Shown here piece after piece: positions 43,971 to 53,811 of a stretch of DNA of 64,000 nt. The notes under the pieces were generated by a model, which did no database searches, was not told where the DNA came from, and saw nothing but the letters and a program-made list of their open reading frames with translations. A program made the translations under genes and the position numbers. The first letter of the stretch is position 1, and each line of letters begins with the position of its first letter. The DNA comes from an uncultured Myxococcales bacterium (lineage in GTDB: Bacteria; Myxococcota_A; UBA9042): NCBI GenBank assembly GCA_903883645.1, contig CAISBR010000131.1, positions 11,871 to 75,870 of the forward strand, written 5' to 3'.

Positions 43971-44059
43971 TTTCTAAGCTGCCTACGCGGCAGTGAACGA
44001 GATGGCCCAGCAGGATGCGCTCACGGACCTTCTTCTAAGCTGCCTACGCGGCAGTGAAC
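43971..44059 (-). CRISPR. Orphan CRISPR mini-array: two repeats matching the type I-F consensus (28 bp) flanking one ~33-bp spacer; no cas genes in the window
   Basis: Plus-strand repeats tttctaagctgcctacgcggcagtgaac (43971-43998) and cttctaagctgcctacgcggcagtgaac (44032-44059). The reverse complement, GTTCACTGCCGCGTAGGCAGCTTAGAAA, matches the I-F consensus including the CUGCC-N5-GGCAG hairpin. Spacer 43999-44031. Confidence 0.55.
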
Positions 44060-45273: not shown

Positions 45274-45684
45274 CTACATCAACAGCAGGAACACGGCGCC
45301 AGCCGCGGCCGCCATGCGCCCACCGCCCTCGATAATTGCGATGACCTTGCCATATTTCGAGTCGCCCCGAATGACTTTATCTCCATCAAGAATTGCGATG
45401 ACTTTGCCGTATTTCGAGTCCCCAGCGATCAACTTTTCGCCATCGACGAGCGCAATCACTTTGCCATACTTCGAATCGCCGCCAATGACCTTTTCTCCGT
45501 CGACGAGGGCAATCACTTTGCCGTACCTGGAGTCTCCGGCTATCAGCTTGCCGTCCTCAAAGACCGCAATTACTTTGCCATACTTCGAGTCTCCGGCGAT
45601 CACCTTACCAAGCGCCCAAGCAGGCGAGGCCGCGCACACGCCGATTGCCATTGCCAGCCAGAAGTGCAGTAGTTTTTGATACAT
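45274..45684 (-). CDS. Small secreted protein composed of six tandem 19-aa repeats (GDSKYGKVIALVDGEKLIA)
   Basis: ATG 45684 with GAGGGG RBS; signal peptide MYQKLLHFWLAMAIGVCAASPAWA; 57-bp DNA periodicity; lower local GC. Confidence 0.6.
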   Translation of the reverse strand: MYQKLLHFWLAMAIGVCAASPAWALGKVIAGDSKYGKVIAVFEDGKLIAGDSRYGKVIALVDGEKVIGGDSKYGKVIALVDGEKLIAGDSKYGKVIAILDGDKVIRGDSKYGKVIAIIEGGGRMAAAAGAVFLLLM

Positions 45685-46422: not shown

Positions 46423-46803
46423 CTACCTCTGCTGCGCCAGCCACGCGTCGAACTCCGCCCGCCGCCCCTTCACAGCAAGCTCGTTGACTGCCCCGCACCG
46501 ACATAGCACCACGTAACCCACTGGCTGGCTTGCAATAAATGCATTCGGCTGCGTCAACACCACCGGCACCAGCTTCCCACAGGTCATGCACGGCGCGACA
46601 AGGGTCACATCCGCCACCGCCGCCAACACCGCGTCCCGCCTATGTTTTGCCCCAACTGTGTTATCCGTCCGCGCCACCTCAGCCAGGCGCTTAGCAATCG
46701 TGTTGCGATGCACGCCAGTGCGCTCGGCAACCTCAGCAATCGAGTACCCAGCTTTGTGGTCCTTCAGCAGCATATCCACAACTTCCTTCTTGAGTTTCGC
46801 CAC
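46423..46803 (-). CDS. Small HTH DNA-binding protein with a C-terminal Cys4 cluster (MGE regulator / excisionase-like?)
   Basis: GTG 46803 with GAGAGGTG RBS; HTH GYSIAEVAERTGVHRNTIAKRL; CMTCG...CRCG. Confidence 0.5.
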   Translation of the reverse strand: MAKLKKEVVDMLLKDHKAGYSIAEVAERTGVHRNTIAKRLAEVARTDNTVGAKHRRDAVLAAVADVTLVAPCMTCGKLVPVVLTQPNAFIASQPVGYVVLCRCGAVNELAVKGRRAEFDAWLAQQR

Positions 46804-46850
46804 TTTACACACCTCTCGTTTGCCGCTCGCTTCAGCATTAAGAGTCCATT

Positions 46851-46990
46851 CGCTGGCCGTCGGTAGCCTGTCTGTCTGCGAGTTCGAGAAACGCCTGCCG
46901 CGACGAGTGGCACGCGCTCGGCCGGCCGGCGGATCTGGCCGCGATGGAGTTGATCGAGGCGCGGTTGTGGGTGCGGCGCCGGCTGGGTAG
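46851..46990. repeat. ~140-bp block duplicated at 50582-50716 (about 88% identity; this copy has a 1-nt indel)
   Basis: Both copies were aligned by eye: ctggccgtcggtagcctgtc(t/c)gtctg...gagtggcacgcgctcggccggccggcgga...atggag...gatcga...tag. Confidence 0.6.
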
Positions 46991-47179: not shown

Positions 47180-47556
47180 CTAGTTGTCGCGTTGCCATTC
47201 GCACTTGCCGGAAAATGGTCTAAAGGCAGGAGTAATCGCCTTTATAATTAGCTGGTTTGCCCTTTGGTTGTTGCCAACCATTCCCGACTCGACCGTCGCT
47301 ACTCGCTGACCTCGTTTGAGCTTGCCACACGCGACGCCATCGGTGCTATCGAGCGTCAGCGCATACCCCTTGCCTGCCAGGGTCAGGCGGCCCGTCACGC
47401 AGCACGCGTTGCCGGCGCAAAGCTCAATCGCCGTGGATCGGGTGTCGAACTTGGCCGTAAGCTGGTTGCCGGCGCAGTCGTAGACACCATCGACGGCGCC
47501 CGCAGCGGGCTGGCTTGTTGCGGCAATGGCCAACACTATAAGATGAAACAGGTAGG
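47180..47556 (-). CDS. Small secreted protein, hypothetical
   Basis: GTG start with AGGTGAA RBS, signal peptide MPYLFHLIVLAIAATSQPAAGA, six Cys; low-GC context. Confidence 0.4.
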
Positions 47557-47668
47557 GCACGGTATTCACCTGAACCAGCACCGAGCTGGCGAAACAGAAT
47601 TGCCCCGAGCGTAGCCAGACTTGGCCGCCACGTCGAGAGGGTGGGCCCGGCTCCATTGGCGTCAGCGC

Positions 47669-48577
47669 CTACCCGGCCACCCGCCCGCCGCGCTCCATCG
47701 GCAGCACCTCCGCCCCACCACCAGGCCCAAGCCCATCAAACCGCCCAAGATCCCCCATGAACGCCGCCGGGCTCAAATGCGCATACCGCAGCGTCAGCTC
47801 GGTCGACTTGTGCCCCAGAATCTTCTGCAGCTTGAACAGATCGCCGCCCGCCATCATCCAGTGGCTAGCGAACGTATGTCGCAGATCATGAAAGCGAATG
47901 TAGTGCGACTGCCGCCCCTGCTCCGGCCGCTTGAACCCCGCCGCGTCGAGCACCTTGTGAAAGCGCTCGCAAAAGATGCGGTCCTTCGACCGGTGCATCA
48001 GCCCCTTGGTGTTCGGAAACAGCAGCCCGCCCGGGCAGCGCAGCCGCCATGCCCGCAAAATCGGCAGCAGCACGTCCAGAATCGGCACATAGCGCACGTC
48101 GCCGGCATTGGTCGGCCCGTCAAAGCTGCGGTCCACGGTGATGATGCGCCGGTCCAGGTCCACGCACTGCCAGCTGAGCGCCGCCAGCTCGCCCTGGCGC
48201 AGCCCGGTGTAGACCGCAGTAGCAAATCGGGTGTAGGCGTCGACGCTATCGTCGTGCGCGGCCCGCAGGAACCGTTGCACCTCCTCGCTGGACCGCAGGT
48301 AGCTGAAGTCCTGGCCGTTGACCCGCACGCTGGGCTTGTCGATGGGCGGCACCGCCAGCAACCAGCCCAGCCGGTGCGCCTGTTTCAGCATCGACCCCAG
48401 CAGAATCAGCAGGTGCCTTAGCATCTGCTTGGACAGGCCGGCGCGCTCGGGCTTGAATACCGCGTTGCGGGCAAGGGCAACGTCTTGCAAGGCCTGCCCA
48501 AGAAGGCCCGGCGCCAACGGCCTGCTTGGCGCCTGCACAGGTGTATCCGCCGGGTACGTCTGCAGATTGGCGCCCAC
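47669..48577 (-). pseudogene. 5'-truncated copy of the tyrosine recombinase (integrase) found at 52375-53508
   Basis: About 90% identical to the full integrase from FKPERAGLS onward (catalytic R...HxxR...Y region intact), but the N-terminal ~125 aa are replaced by unrelated sequence. Confidence 0.7.
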
Positions 48578-48708: not shown

Positions 48709-50076
48709 GTGCTTGTGTGGCATCTTGGCGCTCGTGCCCTGCCAGACTGGCGCAAACACGACCTACTGGTTGACGCCAGCCGCCGCGGCGTCAAGATCGC
48801 CGCTGTCCGCATCGGGCGCGAGGTCACCATGTTCAGGCTTCTGACGGGCATTGGCTGGTTCGTGATGCTACCGATCTTCCTGGTATCGCACGTTTTTCAG
48901 TCGCTATTCGGCAATCGCAGACTTGGATCGACGGCGTGGGATGCCGGCACTGTGCTGCAAGCGTGCATCGCTTTCCACAAGCCGCAAGCGGGCGATCGTC
49001 CTGAAGTCAAAGTTCGGCTGACCGGTGATAGCGACTACGCGCCCGAGTTGCTGCTCTGGCTCGCCGTTCGCGTCATCCAGGACGCAAATGCGCTACGGTC
49101 AAGGTCGCTTACCCCACTTGGCATGGGGGCGCCGGAATACATCGATCTGCTGGACGCGCGCGCGACAAAGCGCCCATCGCAATGGAGTGCCTCCTGGGCC
49201 CCGTACCTTCGTATGATGCGAGCGACCCACGCGCCGTCGGGTCCGATGGCCTACCAGATCGTTGTGAACCTTGTGGCGGGGCAGCGGCGCAACGCCAGGT
49301 GGCTGTGTATGGTACACCTCGAAGGACCGGTGCCTGATGTTGCGCTTGTCGTCGCGCCCTGGATTCTCTGGGACCATCTATCTGCGGTGCTTGAAGCCGA
49401 CCTCTTGGACGAGATCGACTTGTACGTGCACTCCCTTGAAAATAAGTCCAATTTCCCAGTTGGCCACGTAATGGCGGCGCTCTGGGTAAACCGTGTGTTT
49501 GACGCCTATCTCGCATCGTCGGAGGCGAGAGCCGGAGCCAGCCGTCAAAGCGATTCGCCCGCCCCGTATCCCGAAGGCCACAGGGCCCCATCCCACGGCG
49601 CCGCTGTCGCCGCCACGGAACTCGCGGAAGCCATGAGGATCGACGATGTGCTCAGTATGGCCGCTGCCTACCGCGCTGACCAACTTGCAGTCTCATACCT
49701 TGTTCCAGGCGAGCGCGACCCTGCAAGGCGCTGGGTGACGTACCCTGAGTGCAAATTCTGCAAGGAACCGACCAGCAAGACCGGCAACATTGCGAACATG
49801 TTGTTGTCTGGGATCGGCGACCCAGGCGCCTTCCATGACAGGTTCGGCATGGCGTGCTCGCCCCACGCACAAAGGATGACGGCAGAGCTTGCGCCAGATT
49901 TAGGCAATAGTATTCAAGGTCTGCGACAGACTATTGAGAGGGCCCATGTAGAAATGAGGAAACATGCCGAAATTTATGACGTTGACCACCAGTTCGAAAC
50001 AGACGCAACTACGTTGCTCGACCAGCAGCGGCGCGAGAGGGCCGAAGTACTGGGGAGATACGGATTGGCAAATTAG
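48709..50076 (+). CDS. Hypothetical membrane-anchored cargo protein (455 aa)
   Basis: N-terminal TM (FRLLTGIGWFVMLPIFLVSH; probable start MFRLL at 48829); no recognisable motif; lower GC than its surroundings. Confidence 0.45.
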   Translation: MLVWHLGARALPDWRKHDLLVDASRRGVKIAAVRIGREVTMFRLLTGIGWFVMLPIFLVSHVFQSLFGNRRLGSTAWDAGTVLQACIAFHKPQAGDRPEVKVRLTGDSDYAPELLLWLAVRVIQDANALRSRSLTPLGMGAPEYIDLLDARATKRPSQWSASWAPYLRMMRATHAPSGPMAYQIVVNLVAGQRRNARWLCMVHLEGPVPDVALVVAPWILWDHLSAVLEADLLDEIDLYVHSLENKSNFPVGHVMAALWVNRVFDAYLASSEARAGASRQSDSPAPYPEGHRAPSHGAAVAATELAEAMRIDDVLSMAAAYRADQLAVSYLVPGERDPARRWVTYPECKFCKEPTSKTGNIANMLLSGIGDPGAFHDRFGMACSPHAQRMTAELAPDLGNSIQGLRQTIERAHVEMRKHAEIYDVDHQFETDATTLLDQQRRERAEVLGRYGLAN

Positions 50077-50581
50077 GTGACTGCGCAATCGCGTTCGCCG
50101 GCCGCCTTAATTATCCGTGGCGACCACGTCGGAGCGAAGCTTGAATCCGCCCAAATGGTACCGACTTAATGGTGCGGCGCGCGATTTTGGGCCAAGGTTC
50201 GCAACAGCCGCATACTCCCGCAGCGGCACCCCGTGTCATGGGCTTCGTCGCCAAGAGCGCGTAGTGATTCTGAGTTGGCGGCGAATTCCAACCGAAGTTT
50301 GTAGCTGCCGGGCCTCGGCAACTGCCCCGGTCGATTGCTATCCAGCTTGAGCAGAGCTGCTTTGCAACGCGCCTTCACCTGCCAATGTGCGGACCGCCGT
50401 CGCCCACGGCCCGCCGAGGCGGGAACACGGGCCGGCTACCACGAGCGCGAGCCGGTCCGCGCATCGCGCCGCCCGTCGCCCCCGGGACCCTGATCCGCTA
50501 CGAAACCGGTGCCTGCGCCCTGAACACTGGCGTGACCTCCGGCGAGGCCCGCGCATTGGGCTGCAGGCTCGACGCGCTGGC

Positions 50582-50716
50582 CGTCGGTAGCCTGTCCGTC
50601 TGGGAGTTCGAGAACGCCTGCCGTGACGAGTGGCACGCGCTCGGCCGGCCGGCGGACCTGGCGGCCATGGAGCTGATCGAATCGCGGATGTGGGAGCGGC
50701 GGCGGGCGGGGTAGAG
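50582..50716. repeat. Second copy of the ~140-bp duplicated block (see 46851-46990)
   Basis: Direct alignment with the first copy. Confidence 0.6.
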
Positions 50717-50823: not shown

Positions 50824-51222
50824 TTACGACACGCGAACCATCCGCGGGGCGATCCAAAGCGCCAGTGCTGCCAACGAGCAACGCTTTGCCGCCACATCTT
50901 GGATTTTTTGGGCAAGCATCGTAGGGCGCACGGAATCGGCAAGTACGAGTCCGTTCGCACCCAAGAACACAATCATTGCTACCGCTGCCAGGCGCTTGTT
51001 GCCGTCTTCAAAGCAGTGCTTCATCGCTGCGAACCACGCGTAAGCTGCTGCTTTTTCGGCGAGTGTCGGATAGTGGTCTTGCCCCGCAAAGCCGGCAGCC
51101 GGCTGTGCAGCGGTACCGTCTGCACAGCCTTGGTGCAGTTCCGGTGGAACCGGGCGACTCTCCATTGCGAAGAGTTGCCGGTGGAGACTGCGGAGCTCAT
51201 CACCGGTTAGGTAGCGAACCAC
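50824..51222 (-). CDS. doc: Doc (death-on-curing) / Fic-family toxin
   Basis: Fic/Doc active-site motif HCFEDGNKR within ...AAYAWFAAMKHCFEDGNKRLAAVAMIVFL; 132 aa. Confidence 0.8.
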   Translation of the reverse strand: MVRYLTGDELRSLHRQLFAMESRPVPPELHQGCADGTAAQPAAGFAGQDHYPTLAEKAAAYAWFAAMKHCFEDGNKRLAAVAMIVFLGANGLVLADSVRPTMLAQKIQDVAAKRCSLAALALWIAPRMVRVS

Positions 51223-51620
51223 TAGGAATTCCCGAGAATTTCAAGGTCCTCTGCGAAGCGGTTCGCTGTATACCGAAACCATTTCGACAACTCGGCGTCT
51301 AGGCCTTCAAGAGGTGGCGAGGCCAAATCTGCTTGGTGAGCGAAAGGCGGCGGGCCGCCGTGCAGATCGACGAGCCCAGTGACGGCTACGCCCACAGCTC
51401 GGCGAACATTGGGAATTTCAACCTCGCACGGGCATGGAGCCACCAAGCCGGCCGTTACTGCGAATGCAAGAACCGTTGTCGTAACTTTTTCCTGCAAATT
51501 TCCACGGCTCCGCTCCCTGTGCGGCCGGGCAATTCGCTTGATTGGCTTCGCCACAGGTGCCGGCCTAAGGTACCCGTCCGCAGTCCAATCACGAATCATG
51601 TAGTCGTTGAAATCACTCAT
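51222..51620 (-). CDS. Hypothetical protein immediately upstream of, and overlapping, doc; candidate non-canonical antitoxin
   Basis: ORF terminates with a 1-nt overlap at the doc start; no similarity to Phd/YefM recognised. Confidence 0.3.
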   Translation of the reverse strand: MSDFNDYMIRDWTADGYLRPAPVAKPIKRIARPHRERSRGNLQEKVTTTVLAFAVTAGLVAPCPCEVEIPNVRRAVGVAVTGLVDLHGGPPPFAHQADLASPPLEGLDAELSKWFRYTANRFAEDLEILGNS

Positions 51621-52234
51621 TTTGTGTCCATGCTTGCGGCAGATGCAGGTGCAACGACCGCCAACTGGTCTAGGAGCGTGCCCAGGGCTGCCGTCGAGAG
51701 CTGAATTCTGACCACCGGCTCTACTGTTGCTTCTCTTGCGGTAGCTCCAGCTCGGCCCAAATCATGACGAGCCCAGGCCGTCAAGTCGTACAAGTCGATG
51801 GAGGCCTGATACCCCGCGTGAACCATCGCGGCAATCGAAAAGTCTACTTTCACTGTGGGATCTGGATCCGCAGTAAACGCCAGCGGGGGAGCACTATTCA
51901 GACCAGACGAAGTCAAAAACTCGCGGACACGCGGTCCGAATTCCCTGCAACTATTCACCACATCCAGCACACGGTCGGCGCTCGTGCGGGCCACGAGCAA
52001 CTGTGTCAGGCCATCGCCCCGGCACTTTGTTTGGCCGAAAAGCACAAGAATGTCTGCTCCGTCGGTCTCGACTGCAACCCGATCCGCAAGGAATCGGCGG
52101 CTTGGTATGGGGAGGTCGGCTAGCGCAAACGAGACTGTTCCGGTGCCAGGCGGCCCAGGAACAATCGGCAATGCAACACCCGTCGCGCGAGTCAGCGAGG
52201 AAGTGTGCGCCAAACCGGCGCCTTTCTTGACCAT
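51617..52234 (-). CDS. Hypothetical protein, first gene of the three-gene doc operon
   Basis: 4-nt overlap with the next ORF; no motif recognised. Confidence 0.35.
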   Translation of the reverse strand: MVKKGAGLAHTSSLTRATGVALPIVPGPPGTGTVSFALADLPIPSRRFLADRVAVETDGADILVLFGQTKCRGDGLTQLLVARTSADRVLDVVNSCREFGPRVREFLTSSGLNSAPPLAFTADPDPTVKVDFSIAAMVHAGYQASIDLYDLTAWARHDLGRAGATAREATVEPVVRIQLSTAALGTLLDQLAVVAPASAASMDTK

Positions 52235-52374
52235 ACTGCCCTAACCTTGCGGGCCAACGCCGAAGCGAACTTAGGCCCTCCTCATCGTAGTAGGCACGCC
52301 GGCGATCGTCAACAGCCAAGTTGCCCGTCTATGTCGAAAATAATGAGCTTTTGCCGATAATTGAGGGGCTTATG

Positions 52375-53508
52375 CTACCCCACCCGCCGCACCCGCCCGC
52401 CGCGCTCCATCGGCAAAACCTCCGCCCCGCCACCCAGCCCAAGCCCATCAAACCGCCCAAGATCCCCCATGAACGCTGCCGGGCTCAAATGCGCATACCG
52501 CAGCGTCAGCTCGGTCGACTTGTGCCCCAGAATCTTCTGCAGTTTGAACAGATCGCCGCCCGCCATCATCCAATGGCTAGCGAACGTATGTCGCAGATCA
52601 TGAAAGCGAATGTAGTGCGACTGCCGCCCCTGCTCCGGCCGCTTGAACCCCGCTGCGTCGAGCACTTTGTGGAACCGCTCGCAGAAAATCCGGTCCTTCG
52701 ACTGGTGCATGACGCCCTTGGTGTTCGGAAACAGCAGCCCGCCCGGGCACCGCAGCCGCCACGCCCGCAGGATCGGCAGCAGCACGTCAAGGATCGGCAC
52801 ATAGCGCACATCGCCGGCCTTGGTCGGCCCGTCAAAGCTCCGGTCCACGGTGATGATGCGCCGGTCAAGGTCCACGCATTGCCACGTCAGCGCGGCCAGC
52901 TCGCCTTGGCGCAGCCCGGTGTAAACCGCAGTCGCAAACAGGGTATAGACGTCGACGTCATCGTCGTGGGCCGCGCGCAAGAACCGTTGGACCTCCTCGC
53001 TCGACCGCAGGTACGAAAAATCTTTGCCGTTGAGGCGCACGCTCGGCTTGTCGATGGGTGGCACCGCCAGCAACCAGCCCAGCCGGTGCGCCAGCTTCAG
53101 CATCGACCCCAGCAGAATCAGCAGATGCCGCAGGGTCTGCTTAGACAGGCCGGCGCGCTCGGCCTTGAACGCCTCGATGCGAGCAAAGGTAATGTCCTGC
53201 AGCTGCAGCTTGCCAAAGGCCGGAGTCAGGTGGGCCCGCAGCCGGGACGCATCGTCGTTGCCGCTGCGCTTGTGGATCGCCCGCGTGGTCATCCACTGGT
53301 GCGATAGGTCGGCAAAGGTCTTCTTGGGCGGCGGGGCGGGCACTAGGCCCTGCTTGGCCGCATTGACGTTGGCGAGGAGCTGGTGGGTCGCCTGCTGGGC
53401 CTCGTTGTAGCTGTCGAAGGTCTTGGACTGCCGTTGGCCGGCGACGTCGTACCAGCGGACCTGCCACTTGCCGCTCGGCATTCGCTTAGGGTGAACTGAC
53501 CGGGCCAT
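52375..53508 (-). CDS. int: Tyrosine-type site-specific recombinase (phage/ICE integrase)
   Basis: ATG 53508 with GGGAGG RBS (MARSVHPKRMPSGKWQVRWYD); catalytic C-terminus ...HDLRHTFAS...LGHKSTELTLRYAH; adjacent to a tRNA. Confidence 0.85.
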   Translation of the reverse strand: MARSVHPKRMPSGKWQVRWYDVAGQRQSKTFDSYNEAQQATHQLLANVNAAKQGLVPAPPPKKTFADLSHQWMTTRAIHKRSGNDDASRLRAHLTPAFGKLQLQDITFARIEAFKAERAGLSKQTLRHLLILLGSMLKLAHRLGWLLAVPPIDKPSVRLNGKDFSYLRSSEEVQRFLRAAHDDDVDVYTLFATAVYTGLRQGELAALTWQCVDLDRRIITVDRSFDGPTKAGDVRYVPILDVLLPILRAWRLRCPGGLLFPNTKGVMHQSKDRIFCERFHKVLDAAGFKRPEQGRQSHYIRFHDLRHTFASHWMMAGGDLFKLQKILGHKSTELTLRYAHLSPAAFMGDLGRFDGLGLGGGAEVLPMERGGRVRRVG

Positions 53509-53737
53509 CCTTGCCTCCCGAAGGGGCAAGCTATCCATTCGTCTCAACTTCTTCTGCTGACAGTTTTGCCGACTTGTCTGTCAGCAAAACGGCCGGGCAG
53601 GGCGCCTTGGGGGCAGCCGCGCCGCGCCGAATCCCCGGTGTCCGAGCTACCCGCGAGCACCTCGAAAAACAGGGGGGGTACGAGCCTCTCGGGCAATTTT
53701 CGGGCAACGACAGGGGGTCAAAATCGAAATTCCCTAG

Positions 53738-53811
<74 letters not shown>

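Follow-up and report, generated by a model that had tools for sequence, protein, structure and literature searches.

A conserved gene pair found upstream of a Doc toxin gene and of other putative toxin genes suggests a new three-part form of toxin control

Background

How is a Doc toxin held in check where no Phd, RHH, AbrB or HTH antitoxin is encoded at its locus? The question is raised by a compact 1.4-kb cassette of three genes, here called A, B and Doc, in a window of 64,000 nucleotides (the whole stretch of DNA that was analysed) from an uncultured Myxococcales bacterium. Doc phosphorylates EF-Tu and so arrests translation, an activity established for P1 Doc, and, as P1 Doc shows, an intact Doc without a neutraliser is expected to be lethal. 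The locus would imply control of Doc without a Phd-like, RHH or AbrB protein.

Toxin-antitoxin (TA) and antiphage systems are built of interchangeable parts. Promiscuous scaffolds for their control are known in only a few cases, among them Panacea and the SecB-like TAC chaperones. The present locus points to a further scaffold of this kind, made of two families that carry no annotation in any library searched. Such a scaffold would provide a new class of partner for Doc/Fic toxins and a functional handle on at least three uncharacterised families (A, B and SQGD/SHDCE) as well as on DUF7689. In this paper, we report a computational analysis of the three genes, of their relatives in other genomes and of the explanations that may account for their association.

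Results and discussion

Operon structure and genomic setting

The positions, strand, lengths and overlaps given for the three genes by the first-pass annotation were recovered unchanged (Table 1), and A, B and Doc are a real, coupled operon. GC content is uniform across the three genes (57-60%), which have an atypical base composition in common; GC3 is 0.83 in the flanking integrase gene and 0.87 in a 109-aa ORF. A promoter-like site is located in the 140-nt gap that follows the integrase gene. A consensus scan of the region returned 2 sites where 0.6 were expected, and the site upstream of A is, as a pattern match, a candidate promoter.

Table 1. Features of the A-B-Doc locus, in window positions
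Feature	Position	Strand	Description
Doc gene	50824-51222	-	132 aa, GTG start; overlaps stop of B by 1 nt (TAGTG)
Gene B	51222-51620	-	132 aa, ATG start; overlaps A by 4 nt (ATGA)
Gene A	51617-52234	-	205 aa, ATG start; first gene of A-B-Doc
Promoter-like site	52284-52312	-	TTGACG-17-TACGAT, ~50 nt upstream of the ATG of A
Tyrosine integrase	52375-53547	-	directly upstream of A; Pfam Phage_integrase, E 1.4e-27
tRNA-Arg(TCT)	53737-53811	-	ARAGORN; probable integration site of the island

The locus is flanked by the integrase gene and the tRNA gene. A search of the window for an att repeat of the tRNA-Arg 3' end (≤3 mismatches over 27 nt) found none. Every metagenome contig with the cassette showed the order integrase, A, B, Doc, and the cassette was not found in the GTDB representative genomes.

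An intact Doc without a recognisable antitoxin

The Doc product matched the Pfam family Fic/DOC, PF02661 (E 2e-12, 48.2 bits against a cut-off of 24), PHROG 577 'Doc-like toxin' (E 9e-20) and the solved Doc structures 9vzc and 3k33 in the PDB, and scored below the cut-off of the NCBIfam model TIGR01550 DOC_P1 (34.9 against 38.65 bits). By these comparisons it is a divergent member of the family, with closest relatives that are just 36-50% identical. Its catalytic motif HCFEDGNKR (residues 69-77) fits the pattern HxFx(D/N)(A/G)NKR and aligns to HIFNDANKR of P1 Doc (3k33), and in an alignment with nine homologues (10 sequences) the residues H69, F71, D73, G74, N75, K76 and R77 were invariant. 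The alignment agrees with the initial reading of the motif as catalytically intact; the gene appears to be real and its product looks active.

The first-pass annotation had also found no Phd-like partner for this toxin, and wider searches bore this out. Neither A nor B gave any match in Pfam, NCBIfam, PADLOC or PHROGs at E ≤ 1 or among the PDB sequences, and the list of window ORFs holds no further, overlooked ORF that ends near the start of Doc. The antitoxins beside the nearest Doc relatives (36-50% identity) are proteins of 64-100 aa that end in the motif ..VLxKNAELYRRLA, which is absent from B. Among 80 other Doc loci, retrieved with the Doc alignment, there was no homologue of A or B. By eye, the segment LDAELSKWF of B resembles LDAEFASLF of P1 Phd. 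At the level of sequence, a Phd-like tail in B nevertheless found no support: a phmmer search of the tail against the PDB gave no Phd. A profile built from 39 Doc-linked antitoxin C-termini scored neither B nor P1 Phd, and is a weak test of B because P1 Phd fails it too.

Gene A: an unannotated family with a predicted Pur-alpha/Whirly-like fold

Word-indexed homology searches returned only self matches for A and B, and an exhaustive HMMER search was needed to reveal the A family. It comprises 261 clusters at E ≤ 1e-3, with full-length matches and a best non-self E-value of 1e-22. The members are unannotated proteins of ~205 aa with 25-38% identity and common motifs (PxRRY, FGQ, EPxQTV, DFYxxS and DPVVRV), and the common motifs are kept in the window protein. 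No Pfam family was detected in 85 A homologues at E ≤ 0.01, and A has neither an RHH nor an HTH domain. The full alignment was too divergent for collection scans and a sub-alignment of 13 sequences was used instead; no A homologue was found in the GenBank phage and PLSDB plasmid collections.

The AlphaFold model of A reached a pLDDT of 91.6 with an alignment of 85 sequences against 35.8 from the single sequence. The nearest counterpart of its predicted fold is Pur-alpha, with further resemblance to MRP1/2, Whirly and a deaminase-toxin immunity protein; the match is moderate, and on it A is predicted to have a Pur-alpha/Whirly-like fold. No sequence relationship of A to the Pur-alpha/Whirly/sPC4-like families was detected, and the viral fold library BFVD gave no match. 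Folds of this type are known for binding single-stranded nucleic acid and as a toxin-immunity scaffold. Pur-alpha/Whirly (sPC4-like) folds occur in immunity proteins and in the putative sensor domains of Menshen and Shedu (PMC9424270, PMC12065111).

Gene B: a modular protein

Members of the B family begin with the motif M..F..[FY]....W...G, followed by a basic patch, a hydrophobic stretch and a variable C-terminus. In the window protein the N-terminal motif reads MSDFNDYMIRDW..DG and is followed by the basic patch and by a hydrophobic stretch at about residues 49-67, and the C-terminal tail, which is unlike that of other members, ends in LDAELSKWFRYTANRFAEDLEILGNS, a probable amphipathic helix. 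A leave-one-out HMM trained on 18 B-like proteins from other loci matched only B among the 953 window ORFs (E 5e-8), and the match begins at the proposed ATG. These homology searches place A and B in conserved families and show that they are not ORFs that arose by chance.

The two ends of B behave differently. The N-terminal 45 aa scored 41.8 within third-gene type against 35.3 between types, whereas the C-terminal 50 aa scored 42.6 within type against 21.6 between types, and the B proteins partnered with DUF7689 have a distinct C-terminal domain in common. On these alignment scores B is modular: its C-terminus tracks the type of the third gene and its N-terminus does not. Part of this co-variation could reflect simple physical linkage.

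The hydropathy maximum of B is 1.63 over 19 residues and is marginal (1.3-1.7) in several members of the family. Positive charges flank the hydrophobic stretch on its N-terminal side. Should this stretch really span the membrane as a helix, the variable tail would, under the positive-inside rule, lie outside the cytoplasm and be separated from Doc, which would count against neutralisation of Doc by the tail.

The A-B-X triad

We inspected 19 A-family loci out of about 261 clusters. In all 19, A and B are followed by a coupled third gene, here denoted X: an uncharacterised SQGD/SHDCE protein at 13 loci, DUF7689 at two, Fic at two, a 134-aa protein without assignment at one and Doc at one, i.e. 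the window itself. The gap between A and B ranges from -8 to +3 nt in 16/19 loci, and that between B and X from -8 to +15 nt in the 17 other loci where it was measurable, compared with the 1-nt overlap in the window. A and B are a conserved pair, usually accompanied by a third gene other than Doc, and by sequence comparison A-B-X is a conserved, translationally coupled triad in which the third position is exchangeable. The view that the three genes are one unit is strengthened by the coupling of the triad in other genomes; as to conservation of the trio, A-B with a coupled third gene recurs elsewhere, while Doc occupies the third position in the window only.

When the A proteins are arranged in a neighbour-joining tree, loci with the rarer third-gene types are nested among those of the SQGD/SHDCE type, which points to replacement of the third gene. 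The commonest third gene, SQGD/SHDCE, is a putative toxin. Two of nine SQGD/SHDCE members gave a sub-threshold PemK/MazF match (E 0.007), and an assignment to MazF/PemK was rejected after both an hhalign comparison with E. coli MazF and a PDB profile search proved non-significant. A literature search turned up no paper that mentions DUF7689. The occurrence of a conserved A-B pair before different putative toxin genes suggests a new, three-part form of toxin control.

One alternative reads A-B as a unit of its own, for example a small membrane-active toxin (B) with its antitoxin (A) or a pair with a housekeeping membrane function, with Doc as an independent passenger, possibly attenuated or lacking an antitoxin. 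B does resemble small proteins in which a charged N-terminus precedes a hydrophobic helix, a pattern known from membrane toxins (PMC8832971), and its tail shows no detectable similarity to Phd. This arrangement is nonetheless highly improbable in view of the coupled third gene at every locus inspected, the overlap of the Doc start with the B stop, the base composition common to the three genes, the lethality expected of an intact Doc that lacks a neutraliser and the C-terminus of B that tracks the third gene.

A second alternative makes A itself the promiscuous antitoxin or immunity protein, which would bind the various X toxins while B serves as a membrane anchor or auxiliary. Panacea and the polymorphic-toxin immunity proteins of the same fold class are analogues. 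However, A keeps its identity level and motifs while X changes fold between Doc, Fic, DUF7689 and SQGD/SHDCE, the sequence that changes with X is that of B and not of A, and the 80 other Doc loci have no A homologue beside them. We consider a directly neutralising A decidedly unlikely.

Proposed mechanism

The trio probably functions as a module of the A-B-X family that controls a toxin. As regards protein-protein contacts, toxicity, neutralisation, the role of A and the biological function, we infer the following. A-B-X would be a previously undescribed family of three-gene modules with A and B as constant parts and X as an exchangeable, growth-arresting enzyme. In the window, the effector X would be Doc, and its intact HxFxDGNKR motif suggests that it arrests growth as P1 Doc does. 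B would be the cognate neutraliser or adaptor of Doc: the N-terminal motif together with the hydrophobic stretch would anchor B to A, or to the membrane, and the variable C-terminal portion would inhibit the toxin encoded alongside by binding to it, a task that for Doc would fall to the C-terminal helical tail. A would have an accessory part and would stabilise, regulate or trigger B; it might, for instance, sense foreign nucleic acid or repress the operon. Loss or inactivation of B would set Doc free. This distribution of roles, with Doc as effector, B as modular neutraliser and A as accessory sensor, regulator or stabiliser, we judge to have about an even chance of being correct. Precedent for a portable, linear C-terminal element that neutralises Doc and is grafted on unrelated antitoxin scaffolds exists in the Phd-C element carried by Panacea (PMC10440598).

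A more specific version of the same explanation assigns to A the part of a chaperone, which would bind the aggregation-prone N-terminal or hydrophobic segment of B and shield B from degradation ('chaperone addiction'). B conserves its hydrophobic stretch and its N-terminal motif whatever the type of toxin, A and B are always translationally coupled, and TAC systems (PMC5105189, PMC6377645) offer a precedent. Fold searches ruled out A as a SecB-like chaperone, and the classical TAC version of the chaperone proposal in the first-pass annotation is unsupported because A is not SecB-like. We hold the chaperone role for A to be rather unlikely.

The neighbourhoods of the loci bear on function. Other A-B-X loci adjoin MmeI (L089), an HsdM-like methylase called by eye from its translation (L093), an N6/N4 methylase (L109), a SNF2 helicase (L101) and an integrase (L102), and six A-B-X loci are on IMG/VR contigs. 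Restriction-modification genes, integrases and proviral contigs, i.e. neighbourhood alone, suggest a role in defence. In the window the module is cargo directly behind the integrase at tRNA-Arg, so stabilisation of the element and/or defence by abortive infection would be its likely roles.

A broader reading is put forward tentatively, as possible rather than probable. A and B may be a rare, phylogenetically scattered toxin-control platform, composed of a Pur-alpha/Whirly-fold protein and a small modular adaptor, that has on repeated occasions taken up effectors unrelated to one another (Doc, Fic, DUF7689, SQGD/SHDCE and others), the third gene being swapped together with the adaptor tail; A may sense foreign single-stranded nucleic acid and thereby release the toxin. 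If true, A-B-X would stand as a class of its own among tripartite systems of abortive infection or TA, new to science and with an antitoxin architecture that has no precedent.

Comparison with known systems

The window locus resembles phd-doc, the type II TA module of phage P1, and its relatives with RHH or AbrB antitoxins in its Doc toxin with HxFxDGNKR, in having the toxin gene last and overlapping the preceding gene, and in its residence on a mobile element. It differs in having no Phd/YefM, RHH or AbrB antitoxin and in having two genes upstream of Doc instead of one, neither with a recognisable DNA-binding domain.

Similar to Panacea (DUF4065)/NetFlax, A-B-X combines a constant scaffold with many unrelated toxins, Fic/Doc included (PMC8832971, PMC10440598). 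In both, neutralisation is proposed to lie in an exchangeable C-terminal element and the constant part may be sensory. Unlike Panacea, A and B have no DUF4065 domain (Pfam, E ≤ 1), the constant part of A-B-X is split over two genes (A and the N-terminus of B) and similarity to Phd-C is undetectable.

With the TAC systems (PMC5105189, PMC6377645), A-B-X has in common three genes, toxins that differ between systems and a conserved accessory protein that may be required by a labile antitoxin carrying a hydrophobic recognition segment. The accessory protein A is however no SecB homologue, the candidate recognition segment of B is N-terminal or central whereas the ChAD is C-terminal, and the proposed gene order of A-B-X is accessory-antitoxin-toxin.

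Operons of the order regulator-antitoxin-toxin are known from omega-epsilon-zeta and paaR-paaA-parE. A-B-X is comparable in its conserved first gene, which is followed by a putative specific antitoxin and a toxin, and in that the first product may bind nucleic acid; A differs in having no RHH or HTH domain, and its predicted fold class binds single-stranded nucleic acid or proteins. Finally, the sPC4-like/Whirly/Pur-alpha proteins of conflict systems are similar to A in its predicted fold, a moderate match, whereas A is a stand-alone protein of ~205 aa with motifs of its own and no sequence relationship to them.

Three coupled genes ending in a divergent Doc

The first-pass annotation had described three overlapping ORFs ending in a Doc gene, and both their coordinates (see table) and their overlaps, 4 nt between A and B (ATGA) and 1 nt between B and Doc (TAGTG), were reproduced. 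The Doc product was matched to Pfam Fic/DOC (E 2e-12), to PHROG 577 'Doc-like toxin' (E 9e-20) and to the solved Doc structures 9vzc and 3k33, while its TIGR01550 score lies below the cut-off and its PADLOC matches (PDC-S23 and others) are domain-level, to longer Fic/Doc-containing candidates. A search of 5.8 billion proteins found nearest relatives that are only 36-50% identical. The motif singled out earlier, HCFEDGNKR, lines up with HIFNDANKR of P1 Doc, and its catalytic residues hold up in an alignment of 10 homologues, in which H69, F71, D73, G74, N75, K76 and R77 are invariant. Y4 and L5 are invariant in the same alignment, and their position near the N-terminus supports the GTG start. 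On sequence grounds, we regard the protein as a divergent member of the Doc toxins.

Features of the window, with coordinates and strand
Feature	Coordinates	Strand	Remarks
27-nt direct repeat, copy 1	43972-43998		perfect; TTCTAAGCTGCCTACGCGGCAGTGAAC
27-nt direct repeat, copy 2	44033-44059		61 nt from copy 1
ORF matching Bflower_3	45274-45684	-	contains tandem repeat
Tandem repeat	45324-45608		57-nt period
Paralogue of 109-aa ORF	46586-46990	+	88-95% identity
158-aa ORF	47180-47656	-	
Truncated integrase paralogue	47669-48577	-	4.7 kb from tyrosine integrase
455-aa ORF	48709-50076	+	between triad region and truncated integrase
109-aa ORF	50385-50714	+	convergent, downstream of Doc
Doc gene	50824-51222	-	GTG start, 132 aa
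Gene B	51222-51620	-	ATG start, 132 aa
Gene A	51617-52234	-	ATG start, 205 aa
Tyrosine integrase	52375-53547	-	same strand as triad, which lies 140 nt downstream
tRNA-Arg(TCT)	53737-53811		integrase adjoins

The absence of a recognisable Phd-type antitoxin before Doc was likewise upheld: A and B matched nothing in Pfam, NCBIfam, PADLOC or PHROGs at E ≤ 1 and nothing among PDB sequences, and no further window ORF terminates near the doc start. At the loci of the closest Doc relatives and at 80 further Doc loci, RHH or MazE/AbrB-type antitoxins of 64-100 aa accompany the toxin, most of them sharing a C-terminal motif ..VLxKNAELYRRLA, and homologues of A and B are absent. No resemblance in sequence to Phd-C or to this common motif was detected in the tail of B; the profile test used has little power, as it also misses P1 Phd.

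Families and predicted fold of A and B

A word-indexed search with A and B returned self matches only, and the cassette was found at 100% identity on some 25 metagenome contigs, each time with the order integrase, A, B, Doc, 109-aa ORF and ORF of about 455 aa, followed by a truncated integrase where the contig extends. Scanning 1.84 billion cluster representatives exhaustively with HMMER yielded 261 A relatives with E ≤ 1e-3, 64 of them below 1e-10. The best 150 of the 261 are mostly of about 200-215 aa (range 166-270) and align along most of their length. In a sample of 85 members no Pfam domain was found, and their source annotation is hypothetical protein. Neither the GenBank phage collection nor the PLSDB plasmid collection contains a homologue of A. 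The motifs PxRRY, FGQ, LRSL, EPxQTV, DFYxxS and DPVVRV are common to the family and occur in diverged form in the window protein.

Three features recur in the B-type proteins: the motif M..F..[FY]....W...G at the N-terminus, a patch of basic residues and a hydrophobic stretch. A profile made from those of the 18 non-window loci, with window B left out, matched window B alone among 953 window ORFs (E 5e-8; next best 0.05), the alignment starting exactly at its proposed ATG. A and B are real genes, each a member of a family.

When folded alone, A reached a pLDDT of 35.8, as against 91.6 (pTM 0.85) with an 85-sequence alignment. A Foldseek search with the model, like the other fold search, placed Pur-alpha first (E 2e-3), and SecB was absent from both lists. 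The assignment of a Pur-alpha-like fold to this predicted structure is of moderate strength and not decisive. In published comparative studies, proteins of the Pur-alpha/MRP/Whirly (sPC4-like) superfamily are described as binding single-stranded nucleic acids, as an immunity-protein scaffold in polymorphic toxin systems (PMC9424270), and as candidate sensor domains of the antiphage systems Menshen and Shedu (PMC12065111).

An exchangeable third gene

A comparison of 19 loci (the window and 18 others with a homologue of A) out of about 261 A-family clusters bears out what the first-pass annotation had suspected, an unconventional arrangement of three components. All 18 non-window loci carry A, then a small protein of 114-209 aa, then a third gene, here called X. 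A and B are separated by -8 to +3 nt in 16 of the 19 loci, and B and X by -8 to +15 nt in the 18 that are measurable. X is Doc solely in the window. At 13 of the 19 loci X belongs to an uncharacterised family of 175-200 aa with invariant SQGD, H.C and Y.D.R residues (SQGD/SHDCE), which, like A and B, has no match among the PADLOC models. X is DUF7689 at two loci, a Fic protein with the motif HPYANGNGH at two (one above the Pfam cut-off, the other just below) and a 134-aa protein of unknown family at one; one further locus, seen as a gene list only, has a third gene of 229 aa. In a neighbour-joining tree of A, whose long branches make it indicative only, the minority types are nested among the SQGD/SHDCE-type loci, the pattern expected from replacement of the third gene. 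The window locus is thus the one Doc-bearing member found so far in a three-gene family, not described before, whose third gene is exchangeable.

A sub-threshold PemK/MazF match (E 0.007) was seen in two of nine SQGD/SHDCE members, and the family profile gave nothing significant against E. coli MazF or in a PDB profile search; this commonest type of X is a putative toxin at most. The canonical Fic motif is HxFx[DE]GNGR, and the HPYANGNGH of the two Fic third genes (L105:4546-5187 and L108:2814-3446, locus handles with positions) is degenerate, N replacing D/E and H replacing R, such that these proteins may have an activity other than AMPylation. The 134-aa product (L102:1692-2096) has no family match; inspected by eye, it has LFRQV, LSVAR and VQE in an R...S...E-like spacing that recalls ADP-ribosyltransferases. 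Both DUF7689 genes (L091:1642-2142, L101:5185-5679) bear a pattern NC[IV]AFA...TH[MV]ARQ, suggestive of a hydrolase of Cys-His type (papain- or NlpC/P60-like); our literature search found no mention of DUF7689.

The C-terminal part of B varies with X

Local alignment scores for the first 45 residues of B are 41.8 within X types vs 35.3 between them, and for the last 50 residues 42.6 vs 21.6. The part of B adjoining X therefore changes with X, while A and the N-terminus of B remain constant. Partners of SQGD/SHDCE genes have in common a tail ..P.[YH]W..L...., and those of DUF7689 a distinct domain of about 90 aa; B next to the 134-aa gene carries a separate domain of about 120 aa, the two Fic partners resemble each other, and window B has a unique tail ending in LDAELSKWFRYTANRFAEDLEILGNS. 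Plain linkage could account for something of this co-variation. Positive charges flank the hydrophobic stretch of B towards the N-terminus, and its 19-residue hydropathy is 1.63 in the window and marginal (1.3-1.7) in several members. As a membrane-spanning segment it would put the tail outside the cell, where the tail could not bind Doc; alternatively, the stretch may be buried within the protein or bound to a partner.

Genomic context and island structure

A, B and Doc have 57-60% GC and a GC3 near 0.6, as against a GC3 of 0.83 in the integrase and 74.5% GC (GC3 0.87, strong coding bias) in the 109-aa ORF. This difference from the flanks indicates a joint arrival of the three genes from another genomic background, and the triad looks like cargo recently acquired as a block. 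A promoter-like site was found by pattern match in the gap between the integrase and A. The neighbourhoods of other triads are mobile or defence-type: they adjoin an MmeI-type restriction-modification enzyme (L089), an HsdM-like methylase recognised by eye from its translation (L093), an N6/N4 methylase (L109) or a SNF2 helicase (L101), one lies near an integrase (L102), and six are on IMG/VR contigs.

The truncated integrase is 95% identical to the tyrosine integrase over 300 nt. The offsets between paralogues differ, 4712 nt for the integrase vs 3723 nt for the 109-aa ORF, so the triad occupies the slot filled in the other copy by the 158-aa ORF. The arrangement resembles tandem or mosaic islands in which the position behind the integrase holds variable cargo. 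The 455-aa ORF, for which Pfam, NCBIfam, PADLOC and PHROGs give no match, accompanies the cassette on those metagenome contigs that reach it. DNA past the integrase varies among the metagenome contigs, with a radical-SAM gene in one (L001) as in the window, which also has the tRNA there, and other mobile-element genes (HTH_17, AAA_25, DUF4145, WHD) elsewhere, which points to integrations in tandem or to a site that is polymorphic in the population. Elsewhere in the window, the ORF matching Pfam Bflower_3, '6-fold beta flower protein' (E 6e-17), contains a tandem repeat with 114-nt units of 66-73% identity, and each copy of the 27-nt direct repeat has an internal palindrome.

Proposed mechanism and comparison with known systems

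We consider it probable that the three genes work together as a toxin-control module belonging to the A-B-X family. For a more specific model the chances seem evenly balanced: Doc would be the effector, by homology with P1 Doc a kinase inactivating EF-Tu; B would be its cognate neutraliser or adaptor, the variable C-terminal part binding the toxin and the constant N-terminal part connecting to A; and A would be a constant accessory protein, either a nucleic-acid-binding sensor or regulator or a stabiliser of B. Against this model weigh the missing likeness of the tail of B to Phd-C, the charge pattern of its hydrophobic stretch, the merely putative toxicity of the SQGD/SHDCE family, the share that plain linkage may have in the co-variation of B with X, and the sample size of 19 among about 261 clusters. 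The role proposed for B fits the model of a 'linear neutralising element on an exchangeable scaffold', in which a Doc is neutralised by a Phd-C element fused to Panacea, or indeed to SUMO (PMC10440598). Systems that combine a toxin, a modular neutraliser and an accessory third component are known in kind; what is new is the two families of proposed control proteins, A and B, and their arrangement is unprecedented.
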